64,000 nt of DNA, from the NCBI GenBank assembly GCA_028749115.1, contig JAQURD010000008.1, positions 1,218 to 65,217 on the forward strand, given 5' to 3'. The translations under genes and the position numbers were made by a program. The DNA comes from Acidobacteriota bacterium (GTDB taxonomy: Bacteria; Acidobacteriota; Aminicenantia; Aminicenantales; Saccharicenantaceae). The notes beneath the pieces are model-generated. The model was not told the DNA's origin. It saw only the letters and a list, made by a program, of their open reading frames with translations, and made no database searches. Of the stretch, positions 3,567 through 50,847 are shown piece by piece (the stretch's first letter is position 1; each line of letters starts with the position of its first letter).

Positions 3567-4235
3567 TTAATAATATGTTGTCCATTTTTCATGCTCGGGC
3601 AGAAAAATCATCCATCTAAAACAAATTGCTCCAAAGGACCTGACTTCAAAAGTTTCAATTTCTTTACTGATAGGATGGTAAACACCTTCTATCATCAAGC
3701 GGGAGTTCTGGCCCAAGCTTATGCCCAGGCCGGCACTTAGCTGAAGCTCAACTAGAAATTTATCATCATTTGAAGAGTGAGCCCACTCAACCCCGGCCAG
3801 GGCAGCCAGAGTATATTTTATTTTCCCCCGGTCTGAGAAAAACCTTGGTCCGATCAAAATGGTGTATGAATTAAGACTGGCTTCCGATAATAAAACATCC
3901 CACTCGCCATGAGTTCTTCTATATTCGAGACGTAAATCAGCAGTGGTGGAGGTGGTCTTCTGTTTGGGCACCGTGAAAAAACCGAAGCCTAAAGACATAA
4001 TTTCTCCCTTATTTTGTTTTATGTCCTGGTTCAAAAAAGATTTTTGAGGAGAGTATTCACCATAAAAATAATACCAGCTGGAAGTAAAAGAAATCAGCCT
4101 GGGTGTTTTGACCTCAACTTCTACCTCCTGACTCTTAGCCGGCGTGACCAGAAAACAAATTATTAAAACTCCCATTAATAAAACAATCTGGCACCTCAGA
4201 GAAGGACAAATCGCATTCCTCAACGGATGGTTCAT
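3567..4235 (-). CDS. Hypothetical exported protein, probable small outer-membrane beta-barrel
   Basis: SD GAGGAGGAG; signal peptide; alternating hydrophobic strands rich in aromatics. Confidence 0.55.
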   Translation of the reverse strand: MNHPLRNAICPSLRCQIVLLMGVLIICFLVTPAKSQEVEVEVKTPRLISFTSSWYYFYGEYSPQKSFLNQDIKQNKGEIMSLGFGFFTVPKQKTTSTTADLRLEYRRTHGEWDVLLSEASLNSYTILIGPRFFSDRGKIKYTLAALAGVEWAHSSNDDKFLVELQLSAGLGISLGQNSRLMIEGVYHPISKEIETFEVRSFGAICFRWMIFLPEHEKWTTYY

Positions 4236-6573: not shown

Positions 6574-6847
6574 GCAGCCGTGCACCCGGTGTCGACTGCC
6601 CTTCCCCTGCGGACCTCGCTTCCTCGAAGCTCCGGTCAGGCTGGCTGCCACACAAGAACCTGGCTGCTACCGTTGCTACCTTCCGGTCCTGGCGGGTTAA
6701 CAACTGGCTCTTTGCGCAGGGCCCGAACCTTCATCACCCCTAGAAGCAAACCTGGCCAGAAAACTGACAGCCTCGGCCGGGAATTCAGCCCCACTGGAGC
6801 GGGTTGTGGGTACAGGGCACCGCTGGCTCCCCGCTTAGCACGGCTGC
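6574..6847 (-). ncRNA. ffs: Signal recognition particle RNA, large bacterial type with Alu domain (about 274 nt)
   Basis: 5' GCCGTGCTAAGCGGGGAGCCAGCGGTGCCCTGTACC closely resembles the Bacillus scRNA Alu domain; helix-8 motif AACCCGCCAGGACCGGAAGGTAGCAACGG; termini GCAGCCGTGC/GCACGGCTGC form a perfect 10-bp stem. Confidence 0.93.
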
Positions 6848-47190: not shown

Positions 47191-47360
47191 TTTCTCCTTT
47201 CTGTTTCCTTTGTATTTCAGCTTAATCTATTTTTTAATTTTCATCAAAAACAGCAGATTATTAAGGCTCGAAATCTTGTATCTGTCTCAGAGATTGAATT
47301 CAATCAGGCTTTCCCCTGGACTGCTGATTTTTCTGCTTTGATTTTAGCCCTCCCTCATTA

Positions 47361-47882
47361 TTGCTTCATGAGAAAATCTATATAAAATCATAATCATTGC
47401 CTCACGTAAGAATCTAGACGAAACGTTGTGCAGTTTTTCTTATATCTTTGAAGCCGGAAGAGCTTGGCCTGAAGTCTTTCCGTCTATTTTTTCAGATCAA
47501 CTACATTAAGTTCTTTGTATGTTGCCAGGAGTTTTTCTTTTTGTTCGTCCTCAATGTATGGTGATTATAATAATCTCTGATAAGGGGTCTTAGGGCTATC
47601 ATATCTCTTTATGACCAGGCGGTCTATCCTCTCTTTGCTCTTAAGCTTCATGGTTACGTGGAAGAAATTATAATACAGTCTGGAGATAGAATACAGCTCG
47701 TTCAACAAAGCCAGTTACTTCGATACTGCTCGTTGAGCCTTTAACTCTAATTCGAACTCTTCACGCCCCGGTAGATCTCTATCCTTAGTTTGGCTTGAAA
47801 TCCAGCCAGAAGGCAAAACATTTTCGTCTAGATTTTCTCGTGAAGCAACGAATCAGTTTCGTATAGATTTTAAGTGAGGCAA
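47361..47882 (-). mobile_element. Internally deleted IS remnant (DDE/rve-type transposase C-terminus, doubled inverted end repeats)
   Basis: Minus-strand frame LLNELYSISRLYYNFFHVTMKLKSKERIDRLVIKRYDSPKTPYQRLL* with internal stops; repeats at 47361-47386 and 47397-47423 are inverted relative to 47822-47848 and 47857-47882. Confidence 0.75.
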
Positions 47883-47891
47883 TTCGTCCTC

Positions 47892-47920
47892 TTGACAAAG
47901 CAGAAGATGGTGATTAAAAT
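47892..47920 (+). promoter_or_regulatory. Near-consensus sigma70 promoter of leader-trpB2
   Basis: TTGACA (47892-47897), 17-nt spacer, TAAAAT (47915-47920). Confidence 0.8.
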
Positions 47921-47929
47921 CAAAGCAGC

Positions 47930-48022
47930 ATGAGCAAAGATTTGAGCTTTCATCAATTCAACTTAAGCCCAAAATCTTGCCTTCTATCATCCCTTCTTTC
48001 CTGGTTCTGGTGGGCGGACTGA
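47930..48022 (+). CDS. trpL: Trp-rich leader peptide (30 aa)
   Basis: MSKDLSFHQFNLSPKSCLLSSLLSWFWWAD*; three TGG in four codons just before the stop; lies between the promoter and trpB2. Confidence 0.8.
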   Translation: MSKDLSFHQFNLSPKSCLLSSLLSWFWWAD

Positions 48023-48037
48023 TCCGCCCGAGAACTA
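48002..48037 (+). promoter_or_regulatory. Attenuator-like hairpin overlapping the Trp codons
   Basis: TGGTTCT/AGAACTA and GGGCGGA/TCCGCCC stems with the CTGA loop containing the stop codon; followed by a G-free C/U-rich tract. Confidence 0.65.
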
Positions 48038-48113
48038 TCTCCCCCCATTATTTTATTTATTTTTTCTAATTTTTTTATTTATTTTCAACTTTAAAGGAAC
48101 GAAGGAGAATAAA

Positions 48114-49394
48114 ATGTTGAAGTATGCTTCAAGAGATGAAAAACATCTACCTGCTAAATTTTATAATCTAAAAGCCGATCTGCCAGAATTGCCGCCGCCG
48201 CCATTGCATCCAGTGACCAGGCAGCCCCTGAAACCTTCCGACCTCGAAGCCATTTTCCCCAGAAGCTTTATTGCCCAGGAAATTTCACTGGAAAGAGATA
48301 TCCCTATTCCCCAGAAGGTTCTCGATGCCTATTCAGTCTTCCGCCCGACACCTCTCATCAATGCTTCTAAACTGCAGGCTTATCTGGAGACACCGGCTAA
48401 AATATTTTATAAATTTGAAGGAGTTAGCCCAACCGGCAGCCACAAAACCAATACGGCTCTCATGCAAGCCTATTTAGCCAGCCAGGATGGTGTCACCACC
48501 CTCTCGACTGAAACAGGAGCAGGGCAATGGGGCACGGCTCTAGCCTATGCTGGCTCGCTTTTCGGGGTGAAAGCCAGTGTTTATATGGTCAGAAGCAGTT
48601 TCCGGCAGAAGCCTGGACGGCGAATTATGATGCAGCTTTTTGGAGGTGAAGTGACAGAAAGCCCCAGCCCGACAACTGATTCCGGCCTGAAATATTATCA
48701 GGAAAATCCAGACCATCCCGGCAGCCTTGGTATCGCTATCTCCGAGGCAGTGGAAGTTGCAGTTAAAAATCCTGACGTCAAGTATTCACTTGGTTCTGTT
48801 CTCGATACTGTTCTTATGCACCAATCGATCATTGGTCTGGAAGCTCAATCTCAATGTCAGGAAATCGGTTTTGAACCAGAGATAATTATTGGCTGTGTGG
48901 GCGGTGGTTCAAATTTTGCTGGACTGAGTTTTCCTTTTTTACGCCGCAATCTGAAAGAAAAGGCCAGGACGAGATATTTAGCCATCGAACCAGAAGTCTG
49001 CCCTTCCATTACTGGCGGCGAGCTAACTTATGATTACGGCGACAGCGTCGGCCTGACGCCTCTCCTCTTTATGTACACCCTGGGTAAAGATTTTATTCCT
49101 CCAACCATCCATGCCGGCGGCCTGCGCTACCATGGGATGGCTCCCCTGGTCAGCCATCTCGTTAAGCTGGGCCTGGTTCAAGCTAAAGCTTACCCCCAGG
49201 ATAAAGTATTTCAAGCGGCTGAAATATTTCTAAAAACTGAGGGCATCCTACCGGCACCAGAAACTGCACATGCCATAGCAGCAGTGATCGATGAAGCTCT
49301 ACAGGCTAAGAAATCTGCCCGGGCAGTCAACATCTTATTTAATCTTTCAGGACACGGTTTCCTGGATATCAGTGCTTTTGACAATCAAAAATAA
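48114..49394 (+). CDS. trpB2: Tryptophan synthase beta chain, TrpB2 type
   Basis: SPTGSHK (PLP Lys), TETGAGQWG, GCVGGGSNF, HAGGLRYHG; no adjacent trpA. Confidence 0.93.
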   Translation: MLKYASRDEKHLPAKFYNLKADLPELPPPPLHPVTRQPLKPSDLEAIFPRSFIAQEISLERDIPIPQKVLDAYSVFRPTPLINASKLQAYLETPAKIFYKFEGVSPTGSHKTNTALMQAYLASQDGVTTLSTETGAGQWGTALAYAGSLFGVKASVYMVRSSFRQKPGRRIMMQLFGGEVTESPSPTTDSGLKYYQENPDHPGSLGIAISEAVEVAVKNPDVKYSLGSVLDTVLMHQSIIGLEAQSQCQEIGFEPEIIIGCVGGGSNFAGLSFPFLRRNLKEKARTRYLAIEPEVCPSITGGELTYDYGDSVGLTPLLFMYTLGKDFIPPTIHAGGLRYHGMAPLVSHLVKLGLVQAKAYPQDKVFQAAEIFLKTEGILPAPETAHAIAAVIDEALQAKKSARAVNILFNLSGHGFLDISAFDNQK

Positions 49395-49458
49395 GTTAAA
49401 AATTAAATCTTCACCGGGGAAAAGGCTTATTTCCTTTTCCCCTTCTGTTTTTATTATT

Positions 49459-50847
49459 TTATATTTCTTCCATTCTGATGGTGAAATGCCTTAGCTGAGG
49501 TGATTCGCGGACAATTCTCATCCCCCGGACTTCATCACGATTTTCATAAAGCCTGATGATAGCTTCAGCCACATATTCAATTTGAGCACTGGTATAGACC
49601 CGCCGGGGTATAGCCAGGCGGACCAGCTCCAGTTTGGGGAAAATCTCACGGCCGGTTTTTGCATCTTTTTTAGCAAACATGATGGCACCAATTTCTGAGG
49701 TTCTGATACCAGCTTGCCGGTAGAGAGCAACAGTTAAAGCCCAGCCCGGATATTGATGCCGCGGAATATGCGGTAAAAACCGGTCGGCCAGAAGGTAGAT
49801 GGCATGACCACCAAAAGGCTTAAGCACTGGCACACCTGCCTGGTCGAGCAGTTGCCCGAGATAAGCCACCTGACTGACCCGGTAATCAAGATAATCCTCT
49901 TCAAGCACTTCTTCCAGTCCGCGGGCGATAGCTTCCAGATCACGACCCGCCAATCCTCCATAGGTTGGAAAGCCTTCACCCAAAATTAATAAATTTTTTA
50001 CCTTCTCTGCCAGTTTATCATCATCAAGGGTGACAAAACCGCCGATATTAACGAGGGCATCCTTTTTGGCGCTCATGGTCGCCCCCTGCCCATAGGAGAA
50101 AATTTCCTGGGCGATGTCGAGAATACTTTTGCCTTCATAGCCTTTCTCGCGTTTCTTGATAAAATAGGCATTTTCAGCAAAACGGCAGGCATCGAAGAAA
50201 AGCGGAATCCTGTGCTGCTTACAGATCTGACTGACTTCTCTAATATTTCTAAGTGAAACCGGCTGGCCACCACCGCTATTATTGGTAATGGTTAGCATGG
50301 CCAGTGGGATTTTTCCCGTCCCTTTTTTTTCAATAAACTTTTTTAGCCGGGAAGTATCCATATCTCCCTTAAACGGATAGTCAGAATCCGGGTTATAGGC
50401 TTCATCTATGACCAGATCAACGGCAGCCGCTCCCCTGGCTTCAACATTAGCCCTGGTCGTATCAAAATGATTATTGCTCGGGACATAGTCTCCTTTTTTG
50501 ACCATAGCTCCAAACAAAATTCTTTCGGCCGCCCTTCCCTGATGGGCAGGAATGACATGTTTAAAGCAGAAGATGTTTTTCACGGCTGCTTCCAGATGAT
50601 AAAAGCTCCTGGCTCCAGCGTATGATTCATCACCGACCATCAGTCCGGCCCATTGATGATCACTCATGGCTGATGTCCCGGAATCAGTCAGAAGATCAAT
50701 TAAGACTTTTTCCGCCGGAATGTTGAAGACATTAAAGCCTGATTCCTTAAGGACATTTTCCCTTTCCCGCCGGCTGACGGGCTTAATCCTTTCCACTGAT
50801 TTAATGCGAAAAGGCTCAAGCGGTGGCTTTGGACTTTTTATATTCAT
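49459..50847 (-). CDS. tnaA: Tryptophanase
   Basis: IDLLTDSGT, SAKKD (PLP Lys), GFPTYGGL; C-terminal LRHFT (His as in tryptophanases, whereas tyrosine phenol-lyase has LRFFT). Confidence 0.88.
   Translation of the reverse strand: MNIKSPKPPLEPFRIKSVERIKPVSRRERENVLKESGFNVFNIPAEKVLIDLLTDSGTSAMSDHQWAGLMVGDESYAGARSFYHLEAAVKNIFCFKHVIPAHQGRAAERILFGAMVKKGDYVPSNNHFDTTRANVEARGAAAVDLVIDEAYNPDSDYPFKGDMDTSRLKKFIEKKGTGKIPLAMLTITNNSGGGQPVSLRNIREVSQICKQHRIPLFFDACRFAENAYFIKKREKGYEGKSILDIAQEIFSYGQGATMSAKKDALVNIGGFVTLDDDKLAEKVKNLLILGEGFPTYGGLAGRDLEAIARGLEEVLEEDYLDYRVSQVAYLGQLLDQAGVPVLKPFGGHAIYLLADRFLPHIPRHQYPGWALTVALYRQAGIRTSEIGAIMFAKKDAKTGREIFPKLELVRLAIPRRVYTSAQIEYVAEAIIRLYENRDEVRGMRIVRESPQLRHFTIRMEEI

Follow-up and report, generated by a model that had tools for sequence, protein, structure and literature searches.

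The trpB2 gene described here raises the question of how a tryptophan (Trp) leader peptide can govern the gene behind it when the RNA in between offers neither a terminator nor an antiterminator. The gene and its leader, a compact element of about 190 nucleotides (nt), lie in a 64,000-nt stretch of Acidobacteriota DNA (contig JAQURD010000008.1 of assembly GCA_028749115.1), which is referred to below as the window and whose coordinates are used throughout. The answer proposed is in two parts. The leader is very probably a ribosome-mediated sensor of Trp starvation that acts on trpB2. Its main output may be a translational attenuation, specific to Aminicenantes, in which the Shine-Dalgarno (SD) sequence of trpB2 is sequestered; from the sequences, we give this second part about an even chance of being correct.

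For comparison, trpB2 loci were gathered from species-representative genomes, from metagenomes (which contributed at least three further Aminicenantes loci, along with a wide range of trpB2 loci from other phyla) and by exact-protein look-up. This resulted in 25 distinct Aminicenantes loci, having a GC content of 40 to 67% and encoding TrpB2 proteins with 65 to 100% identity to that of the window. Subsets were used for individual analyses: 23 leaders for folding, terminators and linker composition, 22 loci for promoters, and 17 lineage representatives for the shuffle test of SD pairing.

Anatomy of the trpB2 leader

The trpB2 gene (48114..49394, forward strand) encodes a stand-alone TrpB-like pyridoxal phosphate enzyme of 426 amino acids, as indicated by its matches to hidden Markov models: 603.6 bits with TIGR01415 (cutoff 518.85) and 637.9 bits with NF009057 (cutoff 366), while the canonical TrpB model gave 139 bits, far under its cutoff of 392. 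The closest relatives of the gene are labelled Candidatus Saccharicenans or Aminicenantes. Its ribosome-binding region (48095..48116, forward strand) is comprised of the SD strand (48095-48108), which includes GGAG at 48104-07, and of the start codon at 48114-16.

Upstream of trpB2, a sigma-70-type promoter (47892..47920, forward strand) is formed by TTGACA (47892-97), a 17-nt spacer and TAAAAT (47915-20). With 11 of 12 consensus matches, it confirms the consensus promoter that an earlier reading of this DNA (the first-pass annotation) had placed here, and it is the top promoter-like site across 47200-49600. A promoter with 10 to 12 matches occupies the same place in 21 of the 22 related loci scored, the last one (L008) having 9 of 12. 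The promoter is followed by an upstream open reading frame (uORF) of 30 codons plus stop (47930..48022, forward strand; MSKDLSFHQFNLSPKSCLLSSLLSWFWWAD), whose C-terminus reads W-F-W-W-A-D as first annotated, with three Trp residues within the last six codons. The regulatory codons UGG-UUC-UGG-UGG (W25, F26, W27 and W28) are located at 48002..48013 on the forward strand, the Trp codons starting at 48002, 48008 and 48011.

Two features of this uORF are absent from the first-pass annotation. The first is its start: the ATG is located 9 nt past the -10 hexamer in the window (6 to 9 nt in 20 of the 22 loci scored), has no SD sequence, and leaves no space for one between the hexamer and the start codon. 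The transcript thus probably starts at the AUG or at most 3 nt from it, and the uORF is probably leaderless or near-leaderless, with a predicted 5' untranslated region of 0 to 3 nt. Among the 22 promoter-like sites with at least 10 of 12 matches in the whole 64-kb window, the trpB2 leader promoter is the only one that is followed, 5 to 11 nt on, by a start codon opening an ORF of at least 10 codons, so leaderless starts are not the rule among the genes of this window. The second feature is a pyrimidine tract complementary to the SD sequence (UCCCUUCUUUCCU; 47990..48002, forward strand), which lies inside the uORF, just 5' of the hairpin and of the Trp codons.

The hairpin itself (48002..48037, forward strand) is bipartite, with an outer stem (48002-08/48031-37) of 7 bp including one G-U pair, and an inner stem (48011-18/48023-30) of 8 bp including one U-G pair. 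The first-pass annotation was right about its position, about the Trp codons buried in the 5' arm and about the stop codon in the loop (UGA, 48020-22, within CUGA, 48019-22), and its count of 14 bp becomes 15 bp with the wobble pairs included. The hairpin has a predicted free energy of -21.2 kcal/mol (z = -3.56), a value that was matched by none of 200 shuffled sequences. Between the hairpin and the ribosome-binding region, a G-free linker (48038..48094, forward strand), rut-like and mostly unstructured, starts with a C-run (C6, 48041-46) and continues as A/U-rich sequence. The absence of G had also been seen earlier, with an estimated length of about 55 nt; the G-free run in fact covers 63 nt (48033-48095). 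Averaged over 23 loci, the linker contains 10% G and 24% C, and in the GC-rich lineages (65% GC) it still contains 11 to 15% G for 34 to 36% C.

Conservation of the leader in Aminicenantes

All 25 Aminicenantes loci carry, upstream of trpB2, a uORF and the hairpin motif UGGUGGGCGG-N6-CCGCCC. The arrangement shared by these loci consists of a near-consensus promoter, a short uORF with tandem Trp codons (WW), the hairpin motif, a G-poor linker of 50 to 95 nt and a strong SD sequence. The first-pass annotation had proposed that conservation of the Trp codons be looked for upstream of trpB2 orthologues: UGGUGG is kept in 24 of the 25 distinct loci, and the WW codons and the open frame around them are conserved over the whole range of TrpB2 identities, which bears out its description of a Trp-codon leader peptide on a stand-alone trpB2. 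In the Saccharicenans clade the codons form a W-x-W-W pattern near the 3' end of the uORF, and elsewhere WW; past WW, the uORF continues for only 2 to 8 codons. A relaxed version of the hairpin motif had 24 occurrences in 1.19 Mb of fetched DNA searched on both strands, all of them upstream of Aminicenantes trpB2 genes and none elsewhere in that DNA.

The remainder of the peptide is conserved in frame and length rather than in sequence. The uORF counts 30 codons in the Saccharicenans clade (32 in L002), 26 to 35 in most other lineages and 47 to 49 in one clade. The N-terminal two thirds of the peptides are unrelated (starting with MSKDL, MRENF, MFKRE or MCNGT, for example), and the open frame and its length are nonetheless kept. 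The peptides end in WWAD, WWAV, WWAA, WWAGPSA, WWAGPAAQ, WWAPLRAL or WWRAEHSAR, followed by the stop codon; the last Trp is thus separated from the stop by 2 residues in one clade and by 5 to 8 in others, and a terminal Pro was not found.

At the RNA level, RNAalifold applied to 23 leaders returned a single consensus helix, the 6-bp core stem. The core GGGCGGA/UCCGCCC is conserved throughout the class, and the spacer between its arms is always 6 nt long but varies in sequence. One compensatory pair was observed in the core stem, where G-C is replaced by C-G in L172 and L174 with pairing kept. The linker aligns too poorly across leaders for covariation analysis.

Several loci show variations on this arrangement. 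L009 (around 3900) has UGC UGG (Cys-Trp) where its close relative L008 (around 540) has UGG UGG, and is the only locus without tandem Trp codons. In L004 (around 3890-3935) a variant hairpin, GGGGGGGG-TCGAGG-CCCCCC, is found between flanks that otherwise match L161 and L162 (around 2390-2435); it keeps the pairing and drops one Trp codon as well as the loop stop codon, and is either a strain variant or an assembly error. L173, L175 and L176 (200-2500) have uORFs of 47 to 49 codons ending in SWVWWRAE[H/L]SAR, an additional codon, CGG, in the 5' hairpin arm, and a second conserved small hairpin (GCCUC-N4-5-GAGGC) in the linker. Finally, a C-rich patch followed by a U-run (e.g. ACCCCCAUUUUU, CCCAUCUAUUUU, CCACCCUAUUUUU) is located 8 to 17 nt 3' of the stem in 20 of 23 loci, and corresponds to 48038-48060 in the window; within the linker, this patch is the best complement of the WW codons.

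The recurrence of uORF, WW codons and hairpin, and their restriction to trpB2, exclude chance and identify a genuine Trp-codon leader.

Likely read-out of the Trp signal

The non-classical architecture noted at first, lacking a 2:3/3:4 pair, is a property of the whole lineage. The terminator scan found no terminator-like site in the window leader, a canonical one being located after trpB2 (49416-42), and none at the hairpin in any of the 23 Aminicenantes leaders, where two unrelated weak matches lie further 5'. In the window the hairpin is followed by UCUCCCCCC, with two U in eight positions and hence no U-tract; in some close relatives an interrupted stem is followed by a modest U-tract. A mutually exclusive 2:3 antiterminator was not seen in the 23 leaders folded, where RNAalifold reported one conserved helix only. 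The classical 1:2/2:3/3:4 scheme was rejected, as G-rich sequence is confined to the Trp/GGGCGG arm and the SD: with a G-free linker, the C-rich 3' arm has no other partner, which makes a 2:3 antiterminator structurally impossible. A scheme like that of ermC, in which the freed 3' arm would displace the anti-SD tract, fails for the same want of an alternative partner. Pairing of the WW codons with the downstream C-rich patch was also considered as a terminator; its position is consistent with such a role, and its energies are modest and not above those of shuffled sequences (mean z = -0.8).

The leader also has no match among the curated RNA families. At gathering score, Rfam 15 matched only the signal recognition particle (SRP) RNA in the window (bacterial large SRP RNA, 6578-6843, reverse strand, 153 bits); with E values up to 10, the best match in 47850-48160 had E = 1.8 and no relevant family appeared, and the leaders of L007 and L161 had no match. 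Reading the window leader sequence revealed neither TRAP-type (G/U)AG repeats nor T-box features, and the literature searches turned up neither a leader specific to trpB2 nor any attenuator described from Aminicenantes. The first-pass annotation's impression that the element was new for this lineage thus stands: it is an undescribed, lineage-wide variant that lacks both terminator and antiterminator, and in which a probably leaderless uORF has its Trp codons within a hairpin of invariant sequence and carries an anti-SD tract that would fall within the footprint of the stalled ribosome.

It is this anti-SD tract that suggests how the signal could be read. In the minimum free energy (MFE) fold of the window leader, 47990-48002 pairs with 48095-48108 over 12 bp, GGAG included, and abuts the hairpin; the same tract is the best complement of the trpB2 ribosome-binding site (RBS) in the whole window transcript. 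Across the lineage, the 16-nt segment of the transcript that best complements the RBS has its first nucleotide at a position from -24 to +1, counted from WW, in 18 of 23 loci. In about half of the lineages the complementarity between anti-SD and SD is extended in a lineage-specific way, as in L014 (UUUCCUCCUG/CAGGAGGAAA together with CCUGG/CCAGG), L170 (UUCCUCCUGG/CCAGGAGGAA), L008 (CCUCCUUCG/CGAAGGAGG), L081 (GCUGUG/CACAGC) and L171 (more than 20 nt). Binding is stronger in cognate than in non-cognate combinations of anti-SD and SD (permutation p = 0.0007), and against composition-matched shuffles the pairing is significant (p < 0.05) in seven of the 17 lineage representatives, with a Stouffer Z of -6.2 overall; the window itself is borderline (p = 0.07). 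The predicted energy needed to open the RBS is 9.5 kcal/mol for trpB2; among 33 genes of the window, the median is 4.2 kcal/mol. When a ribosome was simulated at the stall site, the opening energy fell by 2 to 3 kcal/mol on average, and by 4 to 9 kcal/mol in L161, L165, L171, L014 and L008, while a ribosome simulated at the stop codon did not lower it.

These observations are consistent with the following sequence of events. The strong promoter would give rise to an mRNA that starts at the uORF AUG or not more than 3 nt from it, and the uORF would be translated as a leaderless message. With Trp-tRNA plentiful, ribosomes would pass W-F-W-W and be released at the loop UGA; on the RNA left free behind them, the GC hairpin (48002-37) would form and, stacked on it, 47990-48002 would pair with 48095-48108 and bury the trpB2 SD sequence, the G-free linker being unable to compete for the anti-SD tract. 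With Trp-tRNA scarce, a ribosome would stall with the first UGG (48002) in its A site and would cover both the anti-SD tract and the 5' arm of the hairpin, leaving the SD sequence free and trpB2 translated. According to standard footprint geometry, such a ribosome would occupy approximately 47987-48014 (-21 to +6 relative to WW in the Saccharicenans clade) and take in the whole anti-SD tract and the 5' arm, whereas a ribosome at the stop codon would cover -3 to +24 and leave the anti-SD tract free. Compared with the outputs put forward in the first-pass annotation, anti-SD/SD pairing is a simpler switch and operates at the level of translation. The untranslated leader, being C-rich and G-poor, would in addition be open to Rho; together with the modest U-tract of the close relatives, this suggests that polarity or termination probably reinforces the OFF state, and Rho would then likely be an amplifier of the translational repression rather than the switch.

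A number of observations weigh against SD sequestration as the main output. In the window the opening of the RBS is unchanged by a simulated stalled ribosome (9.2 versus 9.0-9.1 kcal/mol), because the AU-rich linker offers AAUAAAAUG an alternative partner; the folding with ribosome footprints that had been suggested earlier thus shows easier RBS opening in some lineages but not in the window. Eleven of the 25 loci scored (L001, L003, L163, L005, L010, L006, L007, L082, L083, L172 and L174) have an anti-SD tract that does no better than its CU-rich composition predicts, and in several of these the MFE fold joins the SD sequence to the C-rich patch on the 3' side of the hairpin, out of reach of a stalled ribosome. 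CU-rich, G-poor RNA would pair to some degree with any SD sequence. Moreover, the mechanism gives no compelling role to the near-invariant GGGCGG/CCGCCC stem, and it leaves the C-rich patch and U-run 8 to 17 nt past the stem unexplained.

A broader reading, which we consider doubtful, is that the invariant, class-wide hairpin, which encloses the Trp codons and in one clade also the stop codon, is more than a passive clamp: it would be the core of an undescribed switch, and one leaderless Trp sensor would be connected to different outputs in different lineages, namely SD sequestration, a bulged terminator built from WW, C-patch and U-run, or loading of Rho. If this were true, the Aminicenantes leaders would represent a natural series of attenuators moving between translational and transcriptional control.

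Of the single-output alternatives to SD sequestration, transcription attenuation by one hairpin, as in pyrBI, survives best, and we regard it as unlikely. Here the hairpin would be a weak or interrupted intrinsic terminator, occluded without any antiterminator by a ribosome stalled on the Trp codons of its 5' arm, where these codons do lie. In the closest relatives (L001-3, L161, L163 and L165) the extended hairpin reaches about -20 kcal/mol and is followed by UCUUUUAC or GUCUUUUUAC, with 5 or 6 U in the first 8 nt; the best WW complement, which in 20 of 23 loci is found 8 to 17 nt past the stem and often precedes a U-run, would fit as well. However, the U-tract is lost in the window, whose tail has two U in eight, and was never present in the distant clades, no terminator was called at the hairpin, and canonical terminators are used elsewhere in the lineage, as at 49416-42. 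The geometry is a further difficulty: the stop codon lies in the loop or just 3' of the stem, and a ribosome that ends translation there would keep the hairpin from forming no less than a stalled ribosome, so the replete and the starved state would be poorly distinguished. For the same reason, and in view of the missing U-tract in the window, the idea of the first-pass annotation that stalling prevents the hairpin is not the one best supported.

Next in rank, and likewise improbable, is Rho-dependent attenuation as the primary output, in which the RNA that extends from the distal part of the uORF as far as the SD sequence, being rich in C and poor in G, would serve as a rut (Rho utilization) site and ribosomes on the uORF would gate the loading of Rho, with termination before or within trpB2. 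The 63-nt G-free run with its C6 patch and the low-G linkers of the 23 loci agree with this, and in distant clades the C-rich patch begins 0 to 6 nt past the uORF stop codon, as the rut site of tnaC does. In the AT-rich window, however, the tract is mostly U and A, and the cover given by a ribosome stalled at WW would end at about +13 nt, with the C-patch and the whole linker left exposed. With these uncovered on starvation, protection from Rho would need translation of trpB2 and would hence be secondary to control of the SD sequence. The suggestion that stalling shields a rut-like tract, also made in the first-pass annotation, loses ground for this reason, since the C-rich tract would lie beyond the footprint of a ribosome halted at the Trp codons.

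It is very improbable that the hairpin is the binding site of a protein or other factor, either an RNA-binding regulator or, as the DNA palindrome GGGCGG-N6-CCGCCC, an operator, with the uORF secondary to it. Conservation of the stem in sequence and not merely in pairing, with a spacer fixed in length and free in sequence, would be expected of such a site, but the stem always overlaps in-frame tandem Trp codons, and the open, promoter-proximal uORF to which these belong keeps its frame in 25 loci; the neighbouring genes vary among loci and include no linked candidate for a regulator, and the pairing-preserving change in L172 and L174 suits an RNA and a palindrome equally. Scarcely plausible is the sensing of free Trp in the manner of TnaC, where a nascent peptide would arrest near the stop codon at high Trp, mask the C-rich tract and induce trpB2: the stop codon does adjoin the C-rich patch in distant clades and the convergent neighbour of trpB2 is a tryptophanase-family gene, but the spacing from Trp to stop varies from 2 to 8 residues without a W-x3-D-x7-P pattern, tandem Trp codons are the established hallmark of starvation sensing, and induction of a Trp-forming enzyme by excess Trp would make little physiological sense.

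Genomic context, other phyla and known leader systems

The gene convergent with trpB2 (49459-50847, reverse strand) belongs to the tryptophanase/tyrosine phenol-lyase family, NCBIfam leaving it undecided between the two, and shares with trpB2 the hairpin terminator at 49416-49442. The synteny of trpB2 with a convergent tnaA-pfkB-MTAP group is retained in the Saccharicenans-clade loci and lost in more distant Aminicenantes.

Trp-rich uORFs before trpB2 are not confined to this lineage. They were found at 56 of the 167 loci listed, versus 4 and 10 of 167 in two control regions, and outside Aminicenantes they occur in Bacteroidales, Sutterella, Clostridia, Kiritimatiellae, Lentisphaeria and many unassigned contigs, with leader peptides containing, for example, AYWWWS, NWWWWQ or FFGWWLW. 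Leader ORFs with WWW or WWWW are located 100 to 290 nt upstream of trpB2 in L023, L032, L041, L056, L057, L059, L061, L066, L074, L088, L099, L101, L102, L105, L138, L151, L152 and L156. Two of these loci also carry riboswitches: a glycine riboswitch lies between trpB2 and a serine hydroxymethyltransferase gene in L156 (3141-3229), and a lysine riboswitch downstream of trpB2 in L066 (5538-5759). In 14 of 19 Trp-rich leaders from other phyla, a long perfect terminator (10 to 16 bp plus a T-run) separates the uORF from trpB2; these leaders matched no Rfam family. Their trpB2 genes are also stand-alone, with unrelated genes or none downstream. Placing trpB2 under a Trp-starvation sensor is thus a recurrent solution rather than an invention of Aminicenantes, and what is distinctive of Aminicenantes is the way the signal is read out, not the link between sensor and trpB2. 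If the interpretation is correct, a Trp-starvation signal acting on a stand-alone trpB2, here and in at least five other lineages with classical attenuators, would provide independent genomic support that TrpB2 makes Trp in vivo, and would favour a role in indole salvage rather than an unrelated function.

The sensor is of a known kind, and the principle of leader-peptide control is well known in bacteria. To our knowledge, nearly all characterised amino-acid leader peptides work by switching between terminator and antiterminator and come from Proteobacteria, Actinobacteria and Firmicutes, and the type that combines a leaderless small ORF (sORF) with SD sequestration has so far been shown only for cysteine in mycobacteria. 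With trpL of E. coli (Rfam Trp_leader, RF00513) the trpB2 leader has in common a short ORF with tandem UGG codons before a Trp-synthesis gene, and the proposed sensing of charged tRNA-Trp by stalling. Unlike trpL, it has no intrinsic terminator, no 2:3 antiterminator, no Rfam match and no SD sequence for the uORF, its Trp codons are inside a single conserved hairpin, and its target is a stand-alone trpB2 instead of trpE or a trp operon.

As in cat/cmlA and ermC, a ribosome stalled on the leader would mask or rearrange the RNA that sequesters an SD sequence, the geometry of direct masking resembling that of cat/cmlA. The stall would come from an empty A site at the Trp codons and not from a drug combined with nascent-peptide arrest, as it does in those systems, and the four-segment 1:2/3:4 arrangement of ermC is absent. 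With TnaC and the tna operon the leader shares a Trp-related peptide, a C-rich, G-poor tract by the stop codon and a tryptophanase-family gene nearby. TnaC senses free Trp through a nascent peptide with conserved W12, D16 and P24 and induces catabolism; the trpB2 leader, in contrast, has tandem Trp codons, a variable distance from Trp to stop, and a target in biosynthesis or salvage.

Pairing of regulatory codons with a downstream SD sequence has been reported for the actinobacterial LEU element (Seliverstov et al. 2005, PMC1262725): in this candidate leader peptide, the run of regulatory codons and the SD sequence of the biosynthetic gene downstream together form the stem at the base of a compact fold that has no terminator. 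The LEU element differs from the trpB2 leader in having a pseudoknot and in its amino acid and lineage, and mutation data argued against leader-peptide control there.

The closest parallel is the mycobacterial cysteine attenuator Ms5788A, in which a leaderless sORF of 90 nt is followed by a 97-nt spacer and the regulatory codons pair with the SD sequence; mutagenesis and fusion design identified this control as translational (Canestrari et al., bioRxiv 10.1101/834739). Both leaders consist of an sORF of about 30 codons (probably leaderless for trpB2) with regulatory codons near its 3' end, a spacer of about 90 to 100 nt and pairing with the SD sequence, and need no terminator; in mycobacteria the stalled ribosome blocks the sequestering duplex, as is proposed here for trpB2. 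The trpB2 leader differs in sensing Trp, and in doing so in Aminicenantes (Acidobacteriota), where the mycobacterial leaders sense cysteine and belong to Actinobacteria. Its anti-SD tract lies mostly just 5' of the regulatory codons instead of within them, and its Trp codons and stop codon are enclosed in an additional, invariant GC hairpin that has no counterpart in the cysteine leaders. The mycobacterial leader folds into one long and very stable duplex, whereas the linker of the trpB2 leader is G-free and predicted to be unpaired. If the proposed mechanism is correct, the combination of a leaderless sORF with SD sequestration would extend from cysteine to tryptophan, and from mycobacteria to the uncultured Aminicenantes of the Acidobacteriota.

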